A stretch of 64,000 nt of DNA, taken from the NCBI GenBank assembly GCA_038891035.1, contig JAWAEW010000002.1:22476-86475 (forward strand), given 5' to 3'. Positions 1,174 through 38,256 of the stretch are shown piece after piece. The translations under genes and the position numbers were made by a program. Source of the DNA: Candidatus Anstonellaceae archaeon (lineage in GTDB: Archaea > Micrarchaeota > Micrarchaeia > Anstonellales > Anstonellaceae). The notes under the pieces were generated by a model. It had not been told where the DNA came from. It did not search any database and saw only the letters and a list, made by a program, of their open reading frames with translations. Within the stretch, counting starts at the first letter, position 1; every line of letters starts with the position of its first letter.

Positions 1174-1371
1174 CAGATCCTCCTCCCAACTACTGGCTTA
1201 ATATTTAAATGTTATTTTTTATGTCAAATTATGTTATGTTGTAAAATTTTATAAAACGTATAGTTAAACCGTCGAGAAAGATTAATTTTATTGGAAGAAG
1301 CAAAGCTTCGGTGTTGCGACTGATTTAAAGCGAAACGGTGCTTCAAGCCGCAAGCCGCGAAAAAAATGAGC

Positions 1372-1474
1372 GCCGACGAGGAGATTTGAACTCCTAAGCC
1401 CAAAAGGGCACTAGATTCCTCGCAGAATCTGAAGATCTCGAGTCTAGCGCATTACCAGATTCTGCCACGTCGGC
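1372..1474 (-). tRNA. tRNA-Ser (anticodon CGA) with ~20-nt intron at canonical 37/38 position
   Basis: Hand-folded from reverse complement: acceptor GCCGACG/CGTCGGC, 3-bp D-stem with 11-nt D-loop, anticodon stem CTAGA/TCTAG, loop CTCGAG[intron]A, long variable arm GCCC-TTTT-GGGC, T-arm AGGAG-TTCAAAT-CTCCT. No encoded CCA. Confidence 0.7.
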
Positions 1475-11709: not shown

Positions 11710-14700
11710 TTAGGAGTTCAGTGTTGTAATGCTAACAGTAAAACCTTGGTTGTACAATGCACGTATTTCATCTTCTGAGAGTGCTCTTTTGAATATTTGG
11801 ACTTCATCGATTATGCCTTCATAAGGCTTATTGAGTGAAGGAGAATTTCCTATAATTAGTCTTGGGTAAGTCTGGCCCAGATCTCCTGAAACATCACCAG
11901 TTGCATAAAGTACTCCGTTAATGTAAATAAAGCCGACCCCATCTTTTCTGCTTACTGTGATATGGGTCCACTCGTCTGTGGCTAATTCGATGGGCGATGA
12001 TATTACTTTATTTGCTGCAATAAAGTTCAGATAACCATCTGACAACTCAAGGGCGAAGCCAGAATTCTGAATTTGGTTACTTATGATTTGGCTGGAGATT
12101 ACTGATTTGGGCTTAACCCATAAAGAAACTGTGAAATCATCTCTGCCCTGGAGCACAGGCGATGGGACCGAAAGATGGGAGAATAGAGATGTGAAGTTGT
12201 ATGCTCCACCTATTTTACCAAATGGAGTCCAGTTTGCTGAAACATTTGCATGAAGCAGAAGAGGAGAGTAATCAACCGATATTCCTTCTACTTCTCTATA
12301 ATCGAATGGCAATGAAAGTAGCGCATCAGGAAGCTGCCTTTTTAGGCGAAGCTTGGCATTATAATTTGCAGTAATATTGCTAAATGAAGCGGATGGCTTA
12401 TAAAAGACATCAAGGTCAAGGCTGCACTTGTCTTGATATAAGCCTTTGTAGTGATTTTCGATTTCCCGTTCAGATAGAGCTCTCTTATAGAACCTTATTT
12501 CATCAATCAGTCCTCTGAAACCGTTGCTTCCTGAACTATCAGATGCACCTATAAAGAATGGGGACGATGAGTTTATCCTCAAAAGGCTGAACTGACCTGA
12601 TGCAACCGATTTATCATCAAGATAGATGTTGTATTCGCCTAATCTTCTAACAGAAACTGACACCATATGCCAATTCCCATCTGATAAATCGAGTAGATGA
12701 CTTATCTGTGAAGACTGGCCACTTCCATTTGCACTATAAAATGAGATGTTGAGGAAATTAGCAGGATTCAAAAACCAATCAATCCCCTGTGCTGCCCCAA
12801 ATTCCTGTCCTAGCTGATAAAATAGCCTTGCAAAGCTTCCTTGGCCGGTATAAGGCCTTATCCATACAGACATAGTAAAATCATTGATCTCTGTAACTGA
12901 AACATCGTCTAGATAGACTACTTGGTTGTTTAGAGGTGTATAAAACCGAAGTTCAATGACTGCATTTTGAAGTGTAGAAAATGGTTGTGTGATCCTTTCA
13001 AAAGTAGTGCTTAGCTGCTTTGTGATAAATATGTCTGCACCGGGATTCAATGAATTCCACTGCCCGGAAGGCGCCAAGTACATTTGGTTTTGCACATCAA
13101 CAATTGCATATCTAATCGCATCATTTTGAAGCTCGCCTCTCGCCCAAAACTCAAGCAAATAATTCCTGTTTCCTTTCAGTGCTGAATAAAGAGCTGAACT
13201 GTAAATATACGACGAGGGATCGCTAGAGTAGATTTTAACTGAAGTCGAGCCTGACTTTACTATGTTGTGCTCTGGCTCAAATATGCCATTTCCTTGCTTT
13301 ATCCAATTGTTGAAAAGGAAGGATTGGCTGCCTACACCTGGAGGGATAATGCAGTACTTTACAGATCCGCTTGTTCTTGTTACATTGCACACTGCATTTG
13401 GATCACAGCAGGGATGAACATCGTCACAGCGAGAATTGGTTGGGAAGCAGGTTGTGCATCGCCCATAATCTTGTATTCCCTCAAAAAAGAAGGGAAGTTT
13501 TTTTATCTTGAAAAAGTAGTCGCGAGAATAGGTTTGCTGCTCTTGTTGTGCAACTGTATTTACAAGGTCACAGAAAAGCCCCTCGCAGCATTGCGTGTCA
13601 TTAGTGCAGAGGGCACCTTGCTGACCGCATGTAGGAAGAGGAGGCGCACATCTGAAGGTTTGTTCCCCGTCAAAAAGACACCTGTTTGAGCAGCATTCTG
13701 AGTGATTCCTACAGGTATGGTTGAGAGGAAGGCAGTCCACACACTTTGAGAAATTAGCAGAGGTGCTCAGTAGATCGCAAAGCCCGGAGCAACATTGACT
13801 GTTTTCAGTGCAATTGGTGGTGCTGTTCGTTTGAATGCAAACTGAGCATATCTTTTGGGATGAGCCTGCGGGTGCTGCACAAATACTGCATGTCTGCGGG
13901 CAGTCTGAAGAAATGGTGCAGCTCTGGTTGCATCCTATTCCGCATCGTGGTTGGCTTTCTTCATCTATAAAGCATCTACCACTGCAACATTCGTTGCTGG
14001 TTCCATCTTGGCAAGAGGCAAGTAACTGCCCATTTTGAAGGCAACAGATTCCGTTTAAACAGATTGAGGGGGGGCAACAAGGGATTTTGTTGTCTCCTGA
14101 ACACGGCTGGGAAGCATTTGCGCAATTTAGGTTTGTTAATTCAGCTACATTAGTAGGATTAGAACGATCAGACTTGGCAACAAGATTAGGATTGTTTTTG
14201 GCTTCTGCTTGTATGTATAATTGAACGCTTGTACCATTTTCAAACGTCGAAGTGTTCAATGGTTCTTGCTTACGATACAAAAACAAAATTGGTATTATGT
14301 TGCCCGGCCTCTGCGCAACAAAGACATATGAAATATTAATATATGGTGTGCTGTCAGGACAATTTTGTATGCAGTATACGTTGGACCCTCGAATAACAGT
14401 TGGTGTGGGTGAAATAATTGGAGTGGGTGGTTTTTTAGGTTTGCAAACTCCATTCTCGCATCTTAATCCTATCGTTTTATCGCTATCACAGCAATCAGAA
14501 TCCTTAGTACATTGTTGCCCTCCTTGTGAGCATGCAGAACACCTTCCATTAATGCAAACTGAATTCGAACAGCAATCAGAATCTCTGAGACAGCCATAAG
14601 TCCCACGTGGCCAGCAAGGAACACACTTGCCATCTCTCATCATATAGAACTTAACTGAGCTTGAAGACGGGATTGCAGACCATGGTTGGCGCTCCTCTTC

Positions 14701-15468
14701 ACCTAAAAGGCATTTGCCGGAACAGCATTCAGAATGATAAGAACAGTTTTGCCCATTAGGAATGCATGAACATATGCCATTTATGCACATGGAACTTATA
14801 CAGCAATCAGCATCTGAGCTGCAAGGCCCGTATCCTCTTGGCCAGCATGAAACACATGTACCATTGAGGGGAGTTTCGACGAGCTTTGCAAGCCCAGAAA
14901 AAAGATTTTCTGATGATAAAAACGCCCCACCATCATTGTTGGTGCGTATAAGACATTTGGAAGAGCAGCAATCATTATTTGATTGACAGACTGCACCTTG
15001 TCCTTTGCATGTGGATGTGCTATCCCAGTGACAACCCACTGCTACACATACAGTTTCGTTATAAATGGAAGTGCATGGTAGAGATGGCCCACTGCTTACA
15101 TCATCACATGGAAATGCTGTAAAAGCATTAAATCTGCAATACCCTCCTGCAATATTGCATGCACCAGCCGGATTGTGACTTTTAGAGGCACAGTCGGCTT
15201 CATTTAGAGAAGAACAGAGAGTTGGAGCTGTACCGCTTGCACATGTACAATTGTTTGTCACTAGCTCATATCTCAGATTGCAATATCCTCGCAATTCAAA
15301 TTCGTAGCAAACCGAGGGATAATCGATCGGACCGCATCCGTCGGATGTACACCATGGGTGATTTAGGGAAGTACAGCTTACGTTAGGAGAATTTTGGTTT
15401 TGCGGCACGCAGCCAGCAAAAATGGCTGAAGAAAGCAATCCAAACAGCAACAAAGACAACATTCTCAT
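11710..15468 (-). CDS. 1252-aa surface protein: lipobox signal, repeated knottin-like 6-Cys modules, Pro/Thr linker, two C-terminal LamG_3 (ConA-like lectin) domains
   Basis: MRMLSLLLFGLLSSAIFAGC lipobox. At least 6 repeats with the pattern C-x6-C-x5-CC-x4-C-x4-C (e.g. CWPRGTYGCLRDSDCCSNSVCINGRC). Two LamG_3 signature motifs (IDEIRFYKRALSEREI and IDEVQIFKRALSEDEI). Confidence 0.7.
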   Translation of the reverse strand: MRMLSLLLFGLLSSAIFAGCVPQNQNSPNVSCTSLNHPWCTSDGCGPIDYPSVCYEFELRGYCNLRYELVTNNCTCASGTAPTLCSSLNEADCASKSHNPAGACNIAGGYCRFNAFTAFPCDDVSSGPSLPCTSIYNETVCVAVGCHWDSTSTCKGQGAVCQSNNDCCSSKCLIRTNNDGGAFLSSENLFSGLAKLVETPLNGTCVSCWPRGYGPCSSDADCCISSMCINGICSCIPNGQNCSYHSECCSGKCLLGEEERQPWSAIPSSSSVKFYMMRDGKCVPCWPRGTYGCLRDSDCCSNSVCINGRCSACSQGGQQCTKDSDCCDSDKTIGLRCENGVCKPKKPPTPIISPTPTVIRGSNVYCIQNCPDSTPYINISYVFVAQRPGNIIPILFLYRKQEPLNTSTFENGTSVQLYIQAEAKNNPNLVAKSDRSNPTNVAELTNLNCANASQPCSGDNKIPCCPPSICLNGICCLQNGQLLASCQDGTSNECCSGRCFIDEESQPRCGIGCNQSCTISSDCPQTCSICAAPAGSSQKICSVCIQTNSTTNCTENSQCCSGLCDLLSTSANFSKCVDCLPLNHTCRNHSECCSNRCLFDGEQTFRCAPPLPTCGQQGALCTNDTQCCEGLFCDLVNTVAQQEQQTYSRDYFFKIKKLPFFFEGIQDYGRCTTCFPTNSRCDDVHPCCDPNAVCNVTRTSGSVKYCIIPPGVGSQSFLFNNWIKQGNGIFEPEHNIVKSGSTSVKIYSSDPSSYIYSSALYSALKGNRNYLLEFWARGELQNDAIRYAIVDVQNQMYLAPSGQWNSLNPGADIFITKQLSTTFERITQPFSTLQNAVIELRFYTPLNNQVVYLDDVSVTEINDFTMSVWIRPYTGQGSFARLFYQLGQEFGAAQGIDWFLNPANFLNISFYSANGSGQSSQISHLLDLSDGNWHMVSVSVRRLGEYNIYLDDKSVASGQFSLLRINSSSPFFIGASDSSGSNGFRGLIDEIRFYKRALSEREIENHYKGLYQDKCSLDLDVFYKPSASFSNITANYNAKLRLKRQLPDALLSLPFDYREVEGISVDYSPLLLHANVSANWTPFGKIGGAYNFTSLFSHLSVPSPVLQGRDDFTVSLWVKPKSVISSQIISNQIQNSGFALELSDGYLNFIAANKVISSPIELATDEWTHITVSRKDGVGFIYINGVLYATGDVSGDLGQTYPRLIIGNSPSLNKPYEGIIDEVQIFKRALSEDEIRALYNQGFTVSITTLNS

Positions 15469-17049: not shown

Positions 17050-18090
17050 TTATTTTCCACGATACCAGCCACGAATGATAACAAAACCATAATCATTTTG
17101 AAGCTGATTGGTATTTTTTGCAAATGGGACAGTTAGAGATTGGATCTCTCCACCTCCATACAGGCATCCAGGTCTGTTGACCATGTATAAAATATTTTCA
17201 GGATTGCTGTAAAGAAGCTGCACTTCTTGATGAGAAAGAACACGGTCGTAAAGGCGCACTTCATCCAAAATGCTGTCGCTGTTGAATCCTATTTGGAGAG
17301 GGTTGTTATTACTATTTGGTGCCATGGCAAAATCATCAGTGTCTGCCGCAGTTCCATCTACATAAAGAGTAGCCACTCCTTCTATATCAAAAGTTGCAAC
17401 GATGTGATGCCAGTTGCCATCAGCAATATATGGTCCCTCCAACCATGATTCATCAGATGAAAATATGTGGAAAAAGACGTTTCCTTCTTCAGTAATGCCA
17501 ACAGAATATTTTTCCTCAAATGAAAATAATAATTGTTGATTGCCAATATTTTGACTTTTAACCCATAGAGAGACTGAAAAACTTTCTTGCTCAAAAAGAG
17601 GAGAAAACTGAACTGTTCCGTATGTTGTAGAAGAGAAATGAATGGCCCCGCCCGCTTTCCCATTTTGGACAAATATAGGGGATCCGATTAAAATCCCAAA
17701 AAGTCTGTTTGGAGTGGAGTCATAGATGATCGAACCTGCCACTTCATCAAGCTTCCAATATCCTACAAGACCATCCGCAAGCTGATTGCTAAAACCAACC
17801 ACCTCTATGCAAATTGAAGGAGAAGTCGCACTTAACACCTCTCTTATGGAAGCCGTGGTCTGTGTTAGGTCTTGTGGAGGAGAGAGTAGGCCCTTTTTTG
17901 AAAGCACTGTTGCAACATCTTGTAAGTAAGTTCTCAAAAGCTGGGTTTTAAAGTCTGAATCTTGAGTGTTGCCATAGAAAGTAAAGGCAATAAAGGTGGC
18001 CAGTATAATCATGAATATTGAGATTGCTGCATCAAGACTGAGGAATACTCCCCTTAGCCTCGAGTTAGAGATTTTCATTTTTTCTTCCAT
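17050..18090 (-). CDS. pilin-like protein with C-terminal LamG_3 lectin domain
   Basis: N-terminus SRLRG|VFLSLDAAISIFMIILATF is pilin-like. C-terminal motif ILDEVRLYDRVLSHQEVQLLY is the LamG_3 signature. Confidence 0.55.
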   Translation of the reverse strand: MEEKMKISNSRLRGVFLSLDAAISIFMIILATFIAFTFYGNTQDSDFKTQLLRTYLQDVATVLSKKGLLSPPQDLTQTTASIREVLSATSPSICIEVVGFSNQLADGLVGYWKLDEVAGSIIYDSTPNRLFGILIGSPIFVQNGKAGGAIHFSSTTYGTVQFSPLFEQESFSVSLWVKSQNIGNQQLLFSFEEKYSVGITEEGNVFFHIFSSDESWLEGPYIADGNWHHIVATFDIEGVATLYVDGTAADTDDFAMAPNSNNNPLQIGFNSDSILDEVRLYDRVLSHQEVQLLYSNPENILYMVNRPGCLYGGGEIQSLTVPFAKNTNQLQNDYGFVIIRGWYRGK

Positions 18091-19820: not shown

Positions 19821-20576
19821 TTAGCGCACTTCTACAGTAACTGGAACCGTAAATGATTGGTTTCCTATTTCTGAGCTCACAAAAATTTCCATATTCAAAT
19901 TATAAATTCCCTCTGCGTTATTATTTGCGGCTATTGACACCAAAAACTGAGTGGGTTCGACCTGAAGCTCGCTGGAAGAGGGAGAAACGTTGATGGATAT
20001 ATCTGAGGGCACCCACGGTAAGTAAATAGATGCAAATGCTAAAGAAGAAATCTTCTTTTCCAGAACTATTGATTCGTTCCTGATTTCTCCCTTTGCCATG
20101 CTAACAAATACTGATGGTCTGCTGATAGAGGCGATATATGGCACAATGAACACTTGCCCTCCTTTTGAAAACAAGTACATTTTGTGGGAGCCGCTTTTAG
20201 TCGGAAAAGAACCGGCCAGATTTGCCTGTGTAGATGCAAAGATATCGCTTTGTCCTACTCGCATATTAATGGTCTTTGGGAGTATGAAGGATGAGACATT
20301 TGCAGGCTTGCCTATATATGTTTTGTTAGGATTAAAATCGATTGTCGGAGGTAGAAAAATTTCAACTATTACTGATGCTCCAGCTCCTTGCGCATAAACC
20401 GTATCTGCTGCAATTGCAAGTCTTCTTACTGAATCATAGGCAAGTTTTTCGTTCTTTTCAATTGAAGCTTCGGATAAAAATGAAAGAGAAAGAGACATGA
20501 ATATGAGAACAACTAAAAGTGAAATTCCCATTATAGTGATAAGTTCTGTTGCTACTTGGCCTATTTTGCTATGCAT
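19821..20576 (-). CDS. pilin-like beta-rich protein, paralog of 18999-19784; first gene of the pilus operon
   Basis: N-terminus KIGQVATELITIMGISLLVV is G-Q-x-x-T-E plus a hydrophobic helix. Paralogy as described for the neighbour. Confidence 0.45.
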   Translation of the reverse strand: MHSKIGQVATELITIMGISLLVVLIFMSLSLSFLSEASIEKNEKLAYDSVRRLAIAADTVYAQGAGASVIVEIFLPPTIDFNPNKTYIGKPANVSSFILPKTINMRVGQSDIFASTQANLAGSFPTKSGSHKMYLFSKGGQVFIVPYIASISRPSVFVSMAKGEIRNESIVLEKKISSLAFASIYLPWVPSDISINVSPSSSELQVEPTQFLVSIAANNNAEGIYNLNMEIFVSSEIGNQSFTVPVTVEVR

Positions 20577-22370: not shown

Positions 22371-23008
22371 TTAAGATGGGCAAACATATATGGAAATATT
22401 TTGAAGGTCCTGTGAAGGATATAAAATGGAAACTACCATCGATTATTCATAAACTCAATTTTACTGTTAAATTATACCTAACGCCTTATTTCCAATGTCC
22501 CAAAGCACTCAAAGTTATTATTTGGTGCATATTTGGAAATGGCCATCGATAGTCGACTCTACGGTATAATAGACTTTCAATTGATTCTGTCATTCTACTA
22601 AATGACAAATATAAACAATTGCCCGATAAACCGTTCCGAAAAGAATGACATTTTTATTTCCCCACTAAGCCTTCTATCCTCGTAACTCGATATAATATGG
22701 AAGTTTGGCAGACAAAAAGCGAAGCATATGAATTTAAGTTAGGCCAGATTACTCAAATCCTTTCAATACTTCAACAATTATTGAATTTTCACTTCCGAAG
22801 GAATCAGTGGCAACTATATTCTTGCTGATGCATTTGCCAAGAAAGTTGAAACGATTGTTGACTAAGATTTGCAAGAAGGAAGATACAAAACCGAAACCAA
22901 GGGATATATTTCTACAAATTGAAAGCCAGAACCTGTAGGAATAAAGTATTCAGCAAAAATCTCTACGTAGTGCAAATAATTTAAGGATAGTAGAAAAAAG
23001 ATACAAAT

Positions 23009-23851
23009 ATGGTTCAAATATTCGTAAAAAAAGCAGATGGGACAAGAGAGCTTCTTGACTACAACAAAATAAGGAATGCGCTCAGAAAGGCAGGAGCAAA
23101 CAACCAACTTGCTGACGAAATAGTAGATGCAATTATCCCTAGAATAAAAAATAACATGTCAACTGGTGAGATATACAAGATGGCTTATGAGGAACTTGCA
23201 CAGGTTAGACCAGGTGCTGCGGCCAGGTTTGGGTTAAGAAACGCCCTGCTGAAACTTGGTCCGGACGGCTATCCTTTTGAGACTTTTATAGGTGCACTTT
23301 TGAAAGGAAGAGGGTATCAAACTCAATTGAGGCAGGTTCTTGCTGGTAAATGCATCCAGCATGAAATTGACGTAATTGCTACACGCGGAGAATATGAAGG
23401 CCATCCTCCTACAAAATGTATAATTGAATGCAAATTTCATAATTCTATACACTATGAATGCCACATCCAAGCTGCGCTCTATACTTGGGCACGGTATTTG
23501 GATGTGAAGGAGAACAATCCCGACATAAAAAATTGCTGGCTTGTAACCAATACTAAATTTTCTATGGATGTAATAACATATGCAAACTGTGTAGGGTTGA
23601 AGCTTCTGGGATGGAGCTTTCCAAAAGATGAAAGCTTACAGATCAGAATAGAAGAAAATAAGCTTTATCCCATCACGCTTATGCCCAGCTTAAGCCGGCA
23701 CACGTTTACTATTTTGCACAATGCAGGGATAATAACGATAAAAGAATTCTTGGCAAAAGATGATGAATTCCTCCGCGAATTGAGCTTGAGTGGGAAAGAG
23801 ATCATGAAATTGCGGCACGAAGCAAAGATGATTATGTCGTCGAGAGGCTGA
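23009..23851 (+). CDS. ATP-cone domain fused to Mrr-like PD-(D/E)xK restriction-endonuclease domain
   Basis: The N-terminus MVQIFVKKADGTRELLDYNKIRNALRKAG is an ATP-cone of the kind in NrdR and ribonucleotide reductase. The middle has FETFIGALLKGRGY...HEIDVIATRG...KCIIECKF, which is the Mrr_cat pattern (D...E-x-K). Confidence 0.55.
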   Translation: MVQIFVKKADGTRELLDYNKIRNALRKAGANNQLADEIVDAIIPRIKNNMSTGEIYKMAYEELAQVRPGAAARFGLRNALLKLGPDGYPFETFIGALLKGRGYQTQLRQVLAGKCIQHEIDVIATRGEYEGHPPTKCIIECKFHNSIHYECHIQAALYTWARYLDVKENNPDIKNCWLVTNTKFSMDVITYANCVGLKLLGWSFPKDESLQIRIEENKLYPITLMPSLSRHTFTILHNAGIITIKEFLAKDDEFLRELSLSGKEIMKLRHEAKMIMSSRG

Positions 23852-23856
23852 GAAAA

Positions 23857-24372
23857 ATGCCACTAAAAAAGATCATAGATAAAAAAATTCACTTTTTGTC
23901 CACACAAAAAGCAGTGCTTATGTCGAAAATAAAAATACATACTGAAGGGTATGCAAAAAGAGGAGAAAAACTTTTTTTGGAAATCGAATTAAATCTTCCT
24001 CAGCCATTAAAAGCAAGAAAGTTGGAAGTGACCCTCAACTGTATTCAAATAAAGAAAAGCAAAACTATGACTGAGATGCATGTGTTTGATCGTATGGAGG
24101 AAAAAGAGTTGGGGATTCCTCATCAGACGCACATGAGAGAGAGGACTTCCATAATTGAGAAAGTGGCTTATAAGCAAACCAAAAAGCTAGATGGCGAACG
24201 TTTATACGAAAGTGCAAAATATAGCGTAGATTTTGATATCCCGAATAATTCGCTGCCCACCATCAAACATTTTGATGCACATGGGCGCAAGGTTGGTTGG
24301 TTTGTAGTGGCAAAGCTGGACGTGCCTCTTGCTTTGGACATTGTCGCAAAAAAAGAGATAATTGTTGAATGA
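23857..24372 (+). CDS. hypothetical protein (co-operonic with ATP-cone/Mrr gene)
   Basis: ORF 5 nt downstream on the same strand. No recognisable motifs. Confidence 0.3.
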   Translation: MPLKKIIDKKIHFLSTQKAVLMSKIKIHTEGYAKRGEKLFLEIELNLPQPLKARKLEVTLNCIQIKKSKTMTEMHVFDRMEEKELGIPHQTHMRERTSIIEKVAYKQTKKLDGERLYESAKYSVDFDIPNNSLPTIKHFDAHGRKVGWFVVAKLDVPLALDIVAKKEIIVE

Positions 24373-26017: not shown

Positions 26018-26473
26018 ATGAAAGTAATCAAAAGGGATGGGAGATTACAGGATTTTGATATGAAAAAAATAGAAAGTGCTTTATCAAGAAGTGGTGAAAA
26101 AAAGCATGCAAAAAGAATTGCGCAGATAGTTGCCAAAAAGCTAAAAGGAAAAGAGCAAGTTCCTAGTGCATTGATTAGAGAGCTTGTAATTGCTGAGCTC
26201 CAAGCATGCAAGGAATGCAAAGCTGAGAACTTCATTAATTTCAGAAAAGCAGTCAGAAAACTGTCAAGTCAAGATGAATATTTGGAAAATAGGGTACGCG
26301 ATTTGGTAGGAAAGAATGGGAATGTAGAAGGAGTGTATGGCGGATTCAGGATAACTGTGACCGACCCTGATGAATTTGATTTCTGTGGGGTTTTTCTTGA
26401 ACTTCTCAAAACCTCAAAGTTTAGCATAAGTGTAGAGATGCAGGATGAAAAAATAGTAATTATTGCCAGATGA
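26018..26473 (+). CDS. stand-alone ATP-cone domain protein with uncharacterised C-terminal domain
   Basis: MKVIKRDGRLQDFDMKKIESALSRSGEKKHAKRIAQIV is an ATP-cone. No Zn ribbon, unlike NrdR. Confidence 0.5.
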   Translation: MKVIKRDGRLQDFDMKKIESALSRSGEKKHAKRIAQIVAKKLKGKEQVPSALIRELVIAELQACKECKAENFINFRKAVRKLSSQDEYLENRVRDLVGKNGNVEGVYGGFRITVTDPDEFDFCGVFLELLKTSKFSISVEMQDEKIVIIAR

Positions 26474-27464: not shown

Positions 27465-27578
27465 GAGGGCATTAAACTCTCAAAGAATATTTAATACTTG
27501 CAGAAATTTGAATGCTGCCTTTGTGCTTTCTGGAAACATTTAAATACTTGTAAGCTGAATTTTGTTGCGGCGATCAGT

Positions 27579-28640
27579 ATGGACAGCCTTGTGAAGTCCG
27601 TGCTAGGAGAGCAAGAGCCAGCTCCGACAGAAAATTTTGGCTCAGACCAGATTAAGATTGTGACAGTTGGAGTAGGCGGCGGCGGAAACAACACTATAAA
27701 CCGCCTTATTCGCTCGGGAGTCAAGGGGTGCGAGCTAATTGCGGTGAATACCGACAGGCAGCACCTCAATATGATTCACGAGAAAGCCAAGAAAATCCTT
27801 ATCGGTAAGACTATTACCAAAGGACTTGGCGCAGGCGGATACCCAGAAACCGGTGCAAAGGCCGCAGAAATTGACAGACCACTGATAGAAAAGGAGCTTG
27901 AAGGGGCCCACTTGTGCTTTATTTGCGCAGGTATGGGCGGAGGCACAGGCACTGGAGCAGCACCTGTCATTGCAGAGATTGCAAAGGAGCAAGGTGCTAT
28001 CGTAGTTGCCATGGTGACCTATCCGTTCAACCTCGAGCGCGCAAGGCGGGCAAAGGCAGACGAAGGTATTGCAAAGCTTCGCAAGCACGTCGATTCTGTA
28101 ATAGTGCTTGACAATAACAGGCTGGTGAAACTTGTTCCAAATCTGCCGATGAATGAGGCTTTTGCAGTAGCAGACGAGATTCTTGCAAAGGCAGTCGGTG
28201 GATTAGTCTGGACAATTACACAGCCATCATTGATTAACATTGATTTTGCAGATGTCCGCTCTATTGTGCAGGGTGGAGGAGTCGGCTTCATTGCAGTAGG
28301 AGAAGGGAAAGGCACTGACAAAGTCCGCGGAGCAGCAGAAGGTGTGCTTAAGAACAAGCTGCTGGACGTGGACTATGAAGGAGCAAACGGCGCGCTGATT
28401 CACATCTCAGGCGGAGCAGATCTCACACTTGGGGATGCCATTAAAGCAGGTGAAATAATCACCGAAAAGATGGATCCGCAAGCAAATGTCAAGTGGGGTG
28501 CAAGACTCATACCTGGCTATGACGGCAAGCTTGAAATAGTCGCCATAGTGACTGGGGTGAAAGGCGCAAATGTTTTTGGTGCATCTTCAGATGAACCAAG
28601 AAAAGAAGTCTCCTACTCTGACATAGAGATAATTGGATAG
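27579..28640 (+). CDS. ftsZ: cell division GTPase FtsZ (paralog 1)
   Basis: GGGGNN tubulin signature, GGGTGTG T4 loop, NLE. Start set at MDSLVKS (ATG 27579) rather than the upstream alternative start used by the track. Confidence 0.9.
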   Translation: MDSLVKSVLGEQEPAPTENFGSDQIKIVTVGVGGGGNNTINRLIRSGVKGCELIAVNTDRQHLNMIHEKAKKILIGKTITKGLGAGGYPETGAKAAEIDRPLIEKELEGAHLCFICAGMGGGTGTGAAPVIAEIAKEQGAIVVAMVTYPFNLERARRAKADEGIAKLRKHVDSVIVLDNNRLVKLVPNLPMNEAFAVADEILAKAVGGLVWTITQPSLINIDFADVRSIVQGGGVGFIAVGEGKGTDKVRGAAEGVLKNKLLDVDYEGANGALIHISGGADLTLGDAIKAGEIITEKMDPQANVKWGARLIPGYDGKLEIVAIVTGVKGANVFGASSDEPRKEVSYSDIEIIG

Positions 28641-28856: not shown

Positions 28857-29909
28857 ATGGGGGTTGGAAATATGTTTGAAAATGCGGCAGGTTCTCGGAA
28901 CGATGAATTAATTTCAAACGAGAATATTCGTATTGCAGTCGTAGGTGTTGGGGGAGGCGGTTGCAATACTGTTGACCGCATGACAAGAAACGGCATACGC
29001 TCTGCACAAACGATTGCAATAAACACAGATCAGCTCCACCTGAAAATAGTGCAAGCCCACAAGAGAGTCTTAATTGGATCTACAATTACTAAGGGACTTG
29101 GAGCTGGAGGTTTCCCTGAAGTCGCAGAAAAATGTGCAGAAGTTTCGAAAGAAAAGCTGAGAGAAGTGCTTTCGGAGAAAGAGCTCGTCTTCGTGTGTGC
29201 AGGTATGGGCGGAGGCACAGGCACTGGCGCATCACCTGTAATTGCGCAAATTGCAAAAGAGCAAGGAGCGATCGTTGTATCTGTTGTAACGATGCCATTC
29301 AGACTTGAAAGAGCAAGGATGCAGAAGGCTTTGTGGGGACTGCAGCGCCTTGCAGCTCACTCTGATACCGTGATTGCAATTGAGAATGACCGCCTTGCAA
29401 AATATGTTCCTAATTTGCCAATCAATGAGGCATTCAACCTGGCGGATGCAATAACAAGCAAGGCAATAACAGGAATTGCGGACACCATCATGCTTCCTTC
29501 TCTTATGAACATTGATTTTGCAGACGTAAAATCTGTAATGGAAAACGGAGGCTTTGCACTCCTTTCGATGGGGGAAGGAAGAGGCCCCGACAGGATCGAC
29601 CAAGTAGTAAGAAACACTCTCGAGCAGCCTTTGCTTGACATCTCAACAGAAGGCGCAAAGGGAGCACTTTTGCACATAAGCGGAGGGCCACAGCTTACAC
29701 TTGGAGAAGGCATCCAAATTGGAGAAAAAATTTCCGAGAGCTTTGACTTGAACGCAGACGTCAAAATAGGAGCCAGGCTAGATCCATCATTAGGCGACAC
29801 GATAACCTGCGCTGCAATTATTACCGGCCTGAAGAATCCGTACGTTCAGCCGAGGCCGCCAGAAGAAGAAAAGAAAGTGATAGAGCTGGATGCAATTTCA
29901 TATCTTTAG
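28857..29909 (+). CDS. ftsZ: cell division GTPase FtsZ (paralog 2)
   Basis: GVGGGGCNTV and GGGTGTGASPVIAQIAKEQGAIVV. Distinct C-terminal region from paralog 1. Confidence 0.9.
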   Translation: MGVGNMFENAAGSRNDELISNENIRIAVVGVGGGGCNTVDRMTRNGIRSAQTIAINTDQLHLKIVQAHKRVLIGSTITKGLGAGGFPEVAEKCAEVSKEKLREVLSEKELVFVCAGMGGGTGTGASPVIAQIAKEQGAIVVSVVTMPFRLERARMQKALWGLQRLAAHSDTVIAIENDRLAKYVPNLPINEAFNLADAITSKAITGIADTIMLPSLMNIDFADVKSVMENGGFALLSMGEGRGPDRIDQVVRNTLEQPLLDISTEGAKGALLHISGGPQLTLGEGIQIGEKISESFDLNADVKIGARLDPSLGDTITCAAIITGLKNPYVQPRPPEEEKKVIELDAISYL

Positions 29910-31793: not shown

Positions 31794-31894
31794 CGCCGAC
31801 GAGGAGATTTGAACTCCTAAGCCCGAAAAGGGCACCAGATTTCCTGCTTTCGCAGTCTCAAGTCTGGCGCATTACCAGGTTCTGCCACGTCGGC
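31794..31894 (-). tRNA. tRNA-Ser (anticodon UGA) with ~16-nt intron at 37/38
   Basis: Same architecture as the tRNA at 1372-1474. Anticodon stem CCAGA/TCTGG, loop CTTGAG[intron]A, long variable arm GCCC-TTTTC-GGGC, T-arm AGGAG-TTCAAAT-CTCCT. Confidence 0.7.
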
Positions 31895-38156: not shown

Positions 38157-38256
38157 TGCGGAGAGGAGGATTTGTTCTGCTATAATTGAACCCCCGCAGC
38201 CACTAGGGCACAGGGTCCTAAGCCCTGCGCATTTGACCAGGCTCTGCCATCTCCGC
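38157..38256 (-). tRNA. tRNA-Leu (anticodon UAG) with ~14-nt non-canonical intron in the T-loop
   Basis: Acceptor GCGGAGA/TCTCCGC, anticodon arm CAGGG-CTTAGGA-CCCTG, long variable arm. T-stem GGGGG...CCTCC encloses 21 nt (TTCAATT plus a 14-nt insert) instead of a 7-nt loop. The upstream half is closely similar to the intron-less tRNA-Leu at 42253. Confidence 0.55.

Follow-up and report, generated by a model that had tools for sequence, protein, structure and literature searches.

ATP-cones are the ATP/dATP switch of ribonucleotide reductases (RNR) and of the repressor NrdR, and nucleotide-gated PD-(D/E)xK nucleases are known in CRISPR and CBASS signaling. In DNA of a Candidatus Anstonellaceae archaeon (a stretch of 64 kb, analyzed here as a whole and referred to as the window), one gene appeared to combine both elements, and the question raised by this locus is whether it encodes a nuclease controlled by an ATP-cone and, if so, what such an enzyme would serve for. 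A first-pass annotation had read the product as an ATP-cone fused to an Mrr-like PD-(D/E)xK nuclease, had proposed a defense or DNA-turnover enzyme, and had placed a small co-transcribed ORF immediately downstream.

The coding sequence spans positions 23009..23851 of the forward strand, from ATG to TGA (280 aa plus the stop codon), and was present exactly as originally annotated, including the motifs FETFIGALLKGRGY (aa 90-103), IDVIATRG (aa 120-127) and IIECKF (aa 138-143), with no sign of a chance pattern; full-length homologs measure 262-295 aa. The protein comprises an ATP-cone, a PD-(D/E)xK nuclease core and a C-terminal (HhH)2-like domain, an architecture that is established by Pfam and by structure prediction, as are its fold, the conservation of its residues, its phyletic spread and its gene neighborhoods, each described below. 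The Pfam models ATP-cone, Mrr_cat and AF1548-like_C all matched the window protein, with Mrr_cat (PF04471) at 20.8 bits, just under its threshold of 21 (E 4.4e-4). Among the 146 diverse family representatives on which our conservation counts are based (29-83% identical to the window protein), ATP-cone was matched in 134, Mrr_cat in 132 (E<=1e-3, with a best value of 2.1e-11) and AF1548-like_C in 95. The AlphaFold model, with a pLDDT of 96.6 and a pTM of 0.92, supports a compact multidomain arrangement. With its small size, its solubility and a confidently predicted structure, the protein lends itself to study.

The ATP-cone corresponds to positions 23009..23254 of the forward strand (aa 1-82) and consists of a beta-hairpin and, after it, a helical bundle. 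The Pfam model PF03477 was matched over aa 5-67 at 38.5 bits (E 1.8e-9; gathering score 25.8), and the predicted fold, in which the beta-hairpin caps the helical bundle, superposes on that of the ATP-cones in RNR and NrdR; profile and fold thus bear out the earlier assignment of the N-terminal ~90 aa. The putative nucleotide-contact residues are K8 (conserved in 145/146 representatives), E14 (112/146), K20 (141/146) and T52 (133/146), and the region of K8, E14 and K20 lines up with V-x-K...E-x-F...K, the signature seen in E. coli NrdR (V-V-K...E-P-F...K). The position after the conserved Lys is occupied by Ala or Ser in the family, as opposed to the Arg of canonical RNR ATP-cones, and E. coli NrdR is likewise non-Arg, carrying the V-x-K-S/A motif of the window family rather than V-x-K-R; because a canonical basic residue is replaced, the ligand preference could differ from that of RNR ATP-cones. 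Judging from its sequence, this domain is likely a sensor of ATP/dATP. The last helix of the ATP-cone is connected to the first helix of the nuclease by the junction L83-G84-P85-D-G87-Y-P89-F90-E91 (positions 23255..23281, forward strand), in which G84, G87, F90 and E91 are invariant (146/146), and L83, P85 and P89 are kept in 135, 140 and 103 of the 146 representatives, respectively. Through these residues the ATP-cone would be coupled allosterically to the nuclease.

The nuclease core occupies positions 23273..23623 of the forward strand (aa 89-205) and displays the alpha-beta-beta-beta-alpha-beta topology with the D...(D/E)xK acidic and Lys motif, which is kept in the homologs. Its catalytic residues are E91 (23279-23281), D121 (23369-23371) and E140-C-K142 (23426-23434), and these, along with E119, R162 and D165, are identical in 146/146 representatives, a result that upholds the PD-(D/E)xK assignment. 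From this conservation, the predicted nuclease is likely catalytically intact and the enzyme active. The core also contains Cys and His residues that make up a candidate metal site, with C115, H118 and C194 conserved in at least 94% of the family, C141 in 80% and H144 in 89%; however, the Archaeoglobus fulgidus protein AF1548 has Gln at the position of H118, which argues against a strict Cys/His metal site. Downstream of the core, positions 23666..23848 of the forward strand (aa 220-280) encode an (HhH)2-like DNA-binding domain that was absent from the first-pass description and that probably binds the DNA backbone regardless of sequence.

AF1548 (PDB 1Y88, PF22357), a structural-genomics protein that was predicted to be a restriction-like nuclease in the 2007 GOS paper, is the closest relative of the window protein: the phmmer match covers both the nuclease and HhH domains (E 7.5e-36), the AF1548-like_C model (PF22357) scored 31.2 bits against a threshold of 23.9, and a Foldseek comparison of 1Y88 with the AlphaFold model gave a TM of 0.87 normalized to the target. 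The solved chain of AF1548 (199 aa), however, lacks an ATP-cone, and the match begins at residue 93 of the window protein. The designation "Mrr-like" is accurate as far as the catalytic-domain superfamily goes, which is shared with Mrr and type IV enzymes (PF04471), but not beyond it, since Mrr proper carries an Mrr_N winged-helix modification reader at the N-terminus and acts in restriction, whereas the window protein has no Mrr_N match, bears an ATP-cone in its place, has AF1548 as its nearest relative and is encoded outside any restriction or defense context.

The sensor domain, in turn, is common to NrdR and to RNR (NrdA, NrdD and NrdB) by HMM and by fold, although the remaining domains differ. 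NrdR has a Zn-ribbon before its ATP-cone, whereas the window protein starts directly with the ATP-cone and scored 13.1 bits with the NrdR model TIGR00244 (cutoff 124.65); without the Zn-ribbon, it is not an NrdR. Similarly, RNR contains a reductase domain that the window protein lacks, its output being instead a nuclease domain with intact catalytic residues. Among the ligand-gated PD-(D/E)xK nucleases of CRISPR/CBASS signaling (Card1, Can2, Cdn1, NucC and Cap4), those whose sensors are CARF or SAVED domains for cyclic oligonucleotides (Card1, Can2 and Cap4) align with the window protein in their nuclease domains only; neither sensor domain was detected in the window protein by Pfam or by fold search, while its own sensor is an ATP-cone, presumably for ATP/dATP. 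Furthermore, and in contrast with the CRISPR/CBASS nucleases, the window gene has no CRISPR/CBASS context and shows a housekeeping-like distribution.

Relatives of the 280-aa protein were found in at least 578 species genomes and in 573 clusters (50% identity) at E<1e-30, the best 150 of which, those listed, are nearly all full length. Among archaea the family extends over DPANN and other lineages, and among bacteria over Patescibacteria and several further phyla; its protein length is constant, and it is kept in reduced DPANN and CPR genomes. A neighbor-joining protein tree, built without support values, is largely congruent with phyla, the gene order mltG-mnmA-homolog is conserved in classes of Patescibacteria, and inheritance looks mostly vertical. 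Homologs were found on 2 of 72,556 plasmids, and none turned up among 50,697 phage records and 2.9 million viral contigs. Spread, tree, synteny, the absence from phages and viral contigs, the near-absence from plasmids and the core-chromosome context of the window gene point to a housekeeping rather than a mobile family. In NCBI its members are labeled only as "ATP cone domain-containing protein", and our literature searches retrieved no functional study of the family and none on an ATP-cone–nuclease fusion. Database records contained no entry for the exact window protein, and the window gene is an ordinary member of this large family already present in databases. A homolog, WP_237151220.1, also occurs in the cultured bacterium Pontibacter actiniarum, within an operon that includes genes for a beta-CASP nuclease, a phosphorylase and a PRPP synthase, and another is present in Methanomassiliicoccales.

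The neighborhood of the gene in the window is core chromosome, comprising a DNA ligase, transporters, two FtsZ genes and a diphthamide synthase. A spacer of 638 nt (33% GC) separates it from the upstream ligase gene; an Rfam scan of the window returned tRNAs only, with no match inside this spacer. The spacer holds a TATA-like A/T-rich element read from the sequence, aaataatttaagg (22974..22986, forward strand), centered ~29 nt upstream of the ATG, which could serve the gene as an archaeal promoter of its own and, if so, would yield a nearly leaderless mRNA. The small downstream ORF is real and lies at positions 23857..24372 of the forward strand (171 aa), beginning 5 nt past the stop codon; the N-terminal 21 aa of its product are conserved in locus L002, which supports the start at 23857, and it is probably co-transcribed with the ATP-cone–nuclease gene. 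It gave a weak Arrestin_N match (E 0.02), one match in 5.8 billion proteins and, using a locally built HMM, hits only in L001, L002 and the window; restricted to these three closest genomes, it was rejected as a conserved partner of the family and is considered lineage-specific. A neighboring 151-aa protein has an ATP-cone half that matches known structures and a C-terminal half for which the fold search gave none. By tblastn, the 64-kb window contains no NrdD, NrdG, TrxR, TP-family enzyme, PRPP synthase, beta-CASP nuclease or YfbR-like enzyme, so that the functional links considered next come from other lineages only.

Nucleotide-metabolism genes accompany homologs in 5 of 80 related genome loci, and some DPANN genomes have the gene beside those of RNR and its partners (nrdD, nrdG and trxB). 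In the Aenigmatarchaeota locus L037, nrdG, a thioredoxin gene and nrdD lie divergent from the homolog, which is followed by thioredoxin reductase, and the homolog and nrdD are divergently transcribed across an intergenic region of 181 nt; in the Iainarchaeum locus L024 the order is trxB, gdh, homolog, nrdG, nrdD. These two loci thus carry nrdD plus trxB, and two other Aenigmatarchaeota loci (L053 and L054) carry trxB in the order homolog, trxB, thioredoxin. The fifth is a Nanobdellati locus (L023), in which, as in L093, the stop codon of the homolog overlaps the start of a gene for a YfbR-like HD 5'-deoxynucleotidase. In a bacterial subclade, a beta-CASP nuclease gene abuts the homolog in 6/6 informative loci (one genome locus, L050, with the beta-CASP neighbor only, two plasmids and three metagenome contigs), and two of the six continue into an enzyme of the TIGR02645 thymidine/AMP-phosphorylase family and PRPP synthase; a metagenome scan with the Criblamydia homolog yielded four loci, which bore out the beta-CASP pairing but not the phosphorylase/PRPP-synthase extension. 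Because an RNA-specificity domain is part of the beta-CASP partner, the substrate of the nuclease could be RNA. Searches for the surroundings of family representatives led mostly to contigs of 1-3 kb with few flanking genes. The recurrence of nrdD/nrdG/trxB, YfbR-like and beta-CASP/phosphorylase/PRPP-synthase neighbors in independent lineages supports a role in nucleotide metabolism.

We tentatively favor, at a little under even confidence, an ATP/dATP-gated DNA endonuclease that would tie cleavage to the status of the nucleotide pool, with a role in turnover, salvage or pool homeostasis and not in restriction. Of the two functions offered by the first-pass annotation, turnover is the better supported by these nucleotide-metabolism neighbors, while the defense half did not stand. 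An anti-phage or anti-plasmid effector of restriction-like type (Mrr or type IV-like), triggered by ATP/dATP levels altered upon infection, would be consistent with a nuclease domain that belongs to the Mrr/restriction-endonuclease superfamily and resembles those of Can2, Card1, Cdn1, NucC, Cap4, Avs3 and HamA, and PADLOC-DB 2.0 did return PDC-S02 (E 7.6e-4) and the Mrr-like nuclease of ZorD (E 8e-3) as best matches. These matches, however, are at noise level and reflect merely the shared nuclease fold. The expected clustering of homologs with defense genes was not seen either, no such gene lying near the homolog in the window or in the 80 related genome loci, and the absence of the family from phages and viral contigs, its near-absence from plasmids, its retention in reduced DPANN and CPR genomes, the stable housekeeping synteny across Patescibacteria and a tree that mostly follows taxonomy all speak against defense. 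Rejected as the best explanation on PADLOC, phage records, plasmids and viral contigs, a defense role appears very improbable to us.

Two other readings keep the nucleotide sensor and change the output. The protein might be a nuclease of DNA repair or replication with structure specificity, comparable to NucS or Hjc, in which the ATP-cone would license cutting or resection only while the cell has the dNTPs and ATP needed to resynthesize and ligate the DNA. In the clade of the window the gene follows that of an ATP-dependent DNA ligase (with a gap of 0 nt in L002), Orc1/Cdc6 is adjacent to or near the homolog in a Micrarchaeota clade, DnaA lies directly upstream of it in L079, and in Patescibacteria it is followed by genes for a Cas4-like PD-(D/E)xK nuclease and an MGMT-like protein; given such neighbors, a repair role fits equally well. 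Each of these linkages, however, is limited to one lineage and may be a matter of inherited gene order instead of function, the nrdDG/trxB, YfbR-like and phosphorylase/PRPP-synthase contexts indicate nucleotide pools and not lesions, and we know of no repair nuclease with an ATP-cone, so that we regard a repair function as rather unlikely, if worth keeping in view. Alternatively, the nuclease fold and HhH domain could serve to bind DNA near nrd genes under control of the ATP/dATP ratio, making the protein a nucleotide-responsive regulator and functional analog of NrdR. Both by sequence and by structure, its ATP-cone is closest to the NrdR one, the divergent arrangement with nrdD in L037 and the position beside nrdG-nrdD in L024 would suit a regulator, and such a protein would matter most in archaea, from which NrdR is reported to be absent (bioRxiv 10.1101/2025.03.28.645925). 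Nonetheless, full conservation of the catalytic residues (146/146) is unexpected for a domain used just for DNA binding, the family also occurs in bacteria, most species of which are reported to have NrdR (same source), nrdD is nearby in only 2/80 loci, and the 64-kb window contains no RNR gene; regulation of this kind therefore seems quite improbable.

For the gated endonuclease that we favor, we infer nucleotide binding, nuclease activity, substrate, direction of regulation and physiological role as follows. In a cytoplasmic three-domain enzyme, the N-terminal ATP-cone would sense ATP or dATP, the invariant junction would connect it to the PD-(D/E)xK endonuclease, and the (HhH)2 domain would grip the DNA backbone. 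Nucleotide occupancy of the ATP-cone would turn the nuclease on or off, either by an altered oligomeric state or by repositioning of the E91 helix, in the manner of the ATP-cones of RNR and NrdR, and cleavage of DNA, or possibly of another nucleic acid, would thereby be coupled to ATP/dATP pool status. By analogy with RNR, our guess is that ATP would be permissive and dATP inhibitory. Physiologically, the enzyme would most likely serve the turnover of nucleic acids, or the salvage of (deoxy)nucleotides and the homeostasis of their pools, rather than restriction of foreign DNA. A broader proposal, which we consider doubtful but worth stating, is that this is the first ATP-cone-controlled nuclease, a salvage-side counterpart of RNR that would meter the breakdown of DNA or nucleic acid against the dATP/ATP ratio and by which DPANN, CPR and some free-living lineages would balance their deoxynucleotide supply; a variant of this proposal would make the family the missing archaeal functional analog of NrdR.

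DPANN archaea and Patescibacteria have reduced genomes and rely on scavenged nucleotides. For the window gene alone, a typical family member, the result is more modest, and it is at the level of the family that the reading would matter: an ATP-cone-gated nuclease, if true, would unite the themes of the ATP-cone and of the nucleotide-gated nuclease, and would mean that cells can make DNA cleavage depend directly on their primary pool of adenine nucleotides. It could thus expose an unrecognized control point of nucleotide salvage and, perhaps, a part of dNTP sensing in archaea that lack NrdR.

The open reading frame placed by the first-pass annotation at exactly 23009..23851 of the forward strand is present, running from ATG to TGA and encoding a protein of 280 aa (here T), in which the motifs quoted there were found at aa 90-103, 120-127 and 138-143. 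Pfam searches identified an ATP-cone (PF03477, aa 5-67, E 1.8e-9, 38.5 bits vs a gathering score of 25.8), a Mrr_cat nuclease domain slightly below its threshold (PF04471, aa 86-193, E 4.4e-4, 20.8 bits vs 21) and an AF1548-like_C domain (PF22357, aa 220-275, E 2.4e-7); the proposed pairing of ATP-cone and nuclease therefore stood, and the C-terminal domain had been overlooked. The sole sequence match among solved structures was 1Y88 (AF1548 of Archaeoglobus fulgidus; E 7.5e-36), which spans the nuclease and C-terminal domain (query residues 93-276) and leaves the ATP-cone outside. An AlphaFold2 model built from an alignment of 146 representatives (mean pLDDT 96.6, pTM 0.92) indicates a compact, well-defined three-domain arrangement. 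From the Pfam domains and this model, T therefore comprises a sensor (the ATP-cone), an effector (the PD-(D/E)xK nuclease) and a predicted non-specific DNA-backbone binder ((HhH)2-like).

A large protein search recovered 324 homologues, the nearest 97% identical, the majority being 280-aa proteins of Micrarchaeota or Anstonellaceae named "ATP cone domain-containing protein" by NCBI. A profile search of 1.84 billion representatives returned 1,697 clusters at E<=1e-3 of which 573 reached E<=1e-30, the best 150 being almost all 262-295 aa long and aligned end to end, and with one genome scanned per species, at least 578 species proved to carry a relative. Among the matches listed, the archaea included Micrarchaeota, Iainarchaeota, Aenigmatarchaeota, Undinarchaeota, Altiarchaeota, Hadarchaea, Hydrothermarchaeota and Methanomassiliicoccales, and the bacteria many Patescibacteria, Nitrospinota, Bacteroidota and MAGs labelled Gammaproteobacteria. 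The 146 representatives, 29-83% identical to the window protein, matched ATP-cone (134/146), Mrr_cat (132/146, best E 2e-11) and AF1548-like_C (95/146). Across their alignment, E91, E119, D121, E140, K142, R162 and D165 are invariant (146/146), as are G84, G87 and F90 at the ATP-cone/nuclease junction, and D121, E140 and K142 are the counterparts of the predicted catalytic residues D38/E51/K53 of AF1548 (PMC1821046). Conservation of the PD-(D/E)xK residues, on which the first-pass reading had been made to depend, thus holds in every sequence, and because of this invariance the nuclease looks catalytically competent. The N-terminal ATP-cone is likewise genuine, with K8 (145/146), K20 (141/146), T52 (133/146) and E14 (112/146) conserved and aligning with the V-V-K...E-P-F...K segment of Escherichia coli NrdR.

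T falls within the AF1548-like family as well as the ATP-cone and PD-(D/E)xK superfamilies. Its identification as NrdR was rejected, as it has no Zn-ribbon and its TIGR00244 score of 13 bits lies below the cutoff of 125; nor does T belong to the CARF or SAVED effectors. The label 'Mrr-like' holds at the level of the PD-(D/E)xK superfamily and fails for Mrr proper, since T is without the modification-reading domain. Card1 and Can2 are ligand-gated nucleases with the same logic as that proposed for T, whose sensor, in contrast, is presumed to read primary metabolites. Since the architecture is already recorded in public databases, under an NCBI name and with precomputed Pfam domains, the gene itself is no discovery; our literature search found no paper describing or testing an ATP-cone-nuclease fusion.

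The surroundings of T in the window are ordinary chromosome, ordered as Laminin_G surface proteins with a pilin-like protein, an ATP-dependent DNA ligase, T, a 171-aa ORF, a CitMHS transporter, a 151-aa ATP-cone protein, a Na/Ca exchanger, two FtsZ paralogues in tandem (27498..28640 and 28857..29909, forward strand; Tubulin and FtsZ_C domains) and diphthamide synthase. From Pfam matches and the ORF listing, the reverse-strand genes at 11710..15468, 17050..18090 and 19821..20576 form a probable cell-surface protein cluster. Among its products are one of 1,252 aa carrying two Laminin_G_3/ConA-like domains and one of 346 aa with Laminin_G_3; several further ORFs lack a Pfam match, and one of these has a hydrophobic, pilin-like N-terminus. 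Three reverse-strand Rfam tRNA matches of 100-104 nt (1371..1474, 31794..31894 and 38157..38256), none of them reported by ARAGORN, are probably intron-containing archaeal tRNAs; the ARAGORN tRNA-Thr and tRNA-Leu are 88 nt each. Between the ligase gene and T lies an AT-rich spacer of 638 nt (22371..23008, 33% GC) without a convincing ORF and with nothing at Rfam gathering thresholds, which is 92.7% identical in the related genome L001 and missing in L002, whose ligase gene ends directly before the T start codon.

The small downstream ORF of the first-pass annotation proved to be a real gene of 171 aa (23857..24372, forward strand), starting 5 nt past the T stop codon and restricted to the three closest genomes (the window, L001 and L002). 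One database match is annotated by NCBI as 150 aa, starting at Met22; the longer start at 23857 is favoured, because L002 conserves the first 21 residues yet has Leu, not Met, at position 22. Its Arrestin_N similarity is weak (E 0.02). Two genes 3' of T, the stand-alone ATP-cone protein (26018..26473, forward strand, 151 aa; Pfam ATP-cone E 3e-12) is found at the equivalent position in L001, L002 and L005, and its 12 homologues all belong to Micrarchaeota or Anstonellales. In its AlphaFold model (pLDDT 81.5) the ATP-cone half resembles class III RNR and NrdR, and the C-terminal beta-beta-alpha-beta-beta domain (~50 aa, aa ~101-150) had no structural match in the PDB. This protein may serve as a small sensor of nucleotides, or as a regulator, in archaea, from which NrdR has been reported absent (bioRxiv 10.1101/2025.03.28.645925).

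In other lineages the neighbours of T differ. Several classes of Patescibacteria share a string of valS, a sigma-like HTH gene, a membrane protein, mltG, mnmA and T, followed by a small membrane protein, a Cas4-like nuclease, an MGMT-like protein and an HD protein; orc1/cdc6 adjoins T in one Micrarchaeota clade, and the DNA ligase gene lies 5' of it in the window's own clade. In the Aenigmatarchaeota locus L038 (6857..8801), a LAGLIDADG homing-endonuclease-like gene is directly 5' of the homologue. Plasmids of Criblamydia sequanensis (NZ_LK031773.1, 2849..12874) and Pontibacter actiniarum (NZ_CP021236.1, 1972..6597), from unrelated phyla, carry homologues 35-36% identical to the window protein, each the first gene of an operon continuing with an MBL-fold hydrolase, a thymidine phosphorylase family protein and a ribose-phosphate pyrophosphokinase. 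A 58%-identical homologue at locus L050, a beta-CASP nuclease with an RMMBL domain, served to type the MBL-fold protein, and the best NCBIfam matches of the Criblamydia copy are beta-CASP models (Cas14, aCPSF1), under their cutoffs. The phosphorylase, a sibling of AMP phosphorylase, matches TIGR02645 ('putative thymidine phosphorylase') above cutoff, the kinase matches the PRPP-synthase subfamily PRK07199, and genes for glycogen phosphorylase, phosphoketolase and acetate kinase border the Criblamydia operon; the plasmid-borne operon resembles a module for nucleic-acid or ribose catabolism. The T/beta-CASP pairing occurs in 6/6 bacterial-subclade loci with enough sequence (L081 and L082, the two plasmids, L087, L088, L089 and L050).

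Three independent archaeal contexts are suggestive of nucleotide metabolism. At the Nanobdellati locus L023 (the same as L093), the T stop codon overlaps the start of a YfbR-like HD 5'-deoxynucleotidase. In the Aenigmatarchaeota locus L037 (4324..9796), T lies divergently to thioredoxin, nrdG and an nrdD that itself encodes an ATP-cone, and thioredoxin reductase starts 2 nt after T; in Iainarchaeum (L024, 1634..7362) the order is trxB, gdh, T, nrdG, nrdD, and two further Aenigmatarchaeota loci (L053 and L054) have trxB and thioredoxin after T. Since the L037 and L024 NrdD proteins are just 28% identical, the nrdD/nrdG linkage is either old or arose twice. Such neighbourhoods are a minority of T loci, suggestive rather than decisive, and tblastn found none of these nucleotide-metabolism partners (nrdD, YfbR-like, beta-CASP, phosphorylase and others) in the 64-kb window.

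The first-pass annotation had offered defence as one role of T, and a defence effector now appears highly improbable. Only the fold speaks for it; PADLOC, however, gave noise-level, fold-driven matches (E 7.6e-4 and 8e-3), homologues were absent from 50,697 phage records (tblastn) and 2.9 million viral contigs (pattern scan) and present in 2 of 72,556 plasmids (tblastn), and the GC content of the gene (40.8%) is similar to that of the window (42.5%), all of which argue against this role. Furthermore, when ORFs were called and clustered in 80 related genome loci, no defence gene was found beside T, nor any neighbour conserved across phyla. In a neighbour-joining tree without support values, bacterial proteins stand apart from archaeal ones with one exception, and Patescibacteria (two stray), Bacteroidota/Chlamydiota, Nitrospinota, Methanomassiliicoccales and Hadarchaea form groups, with Micrarchaeota split between two main clades. 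Because the tree largely follows phyla, T has the hallmarks of a housekeeping gene passed on mostly vertically rather than of a mobile defence gene. The exception, from a MAG labelled Gammaproteobacteria (L079, 6637..8873) with the homologue directly 3' of dnaA, sits among archaeal sequences, which suggests horizontal transfer or mis-binning.

An NrdR-like regulator would fit the reported absence of NrdR from archaea and the divergent nrdD arrangement in L037, but is hard to reconcile with catalytic residues invariant in 146/146 sequences, and we consider it very unlikely. A repair or replication nuclease whose activity depends on nucleotide status, for which the structural neighbours NucS, Hjc and RAD51-like proteins and the ligase, Orc1/Cdc6, DnaA and Cas4-like/MGMT gene neighbours, each in different lineages, can be cited, is unlikely to a lesser degree. 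We tentatively favour, at close to an even chance, a nucleotide-gated nuclease that would link the breakdown of nucleic acids to the adenine (deoxy)nucleotide pool. T has an ATP-cone with conserved putative ligand-contact residues, an intact D...ExK site and an HhH tail predicted to bind DNA, and its Gly/Pro-rich invariant junction leads straight into the helix bearing the invariant E91. The ATP-cones of RNR and NrdR change quaternary structure upon nucleotide binding; similarly, ATP or dATP binding to the T cone would alter either the quaternary structure or the E91 helix geometry, and the state of the cone would decide whether a sequence-non-specific DNA endonuclease is active. Its cleavage products would pass to exonucleases, nucleotidases and phosphorylases, and breakdown would thereby be coupled to the adenine (deoxy)nucleotide pool. 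Reasoning from RNR, we guess that ATP permits activity and dATP inhibits it; the polarity may be the opposite, or the substrate may be RNA, which is conceivable because the beta-CASP partner has an RNA-specificity domain. As a small, confidently modelled and widely conserved protein, T offers a sharp, testable hypothesis.
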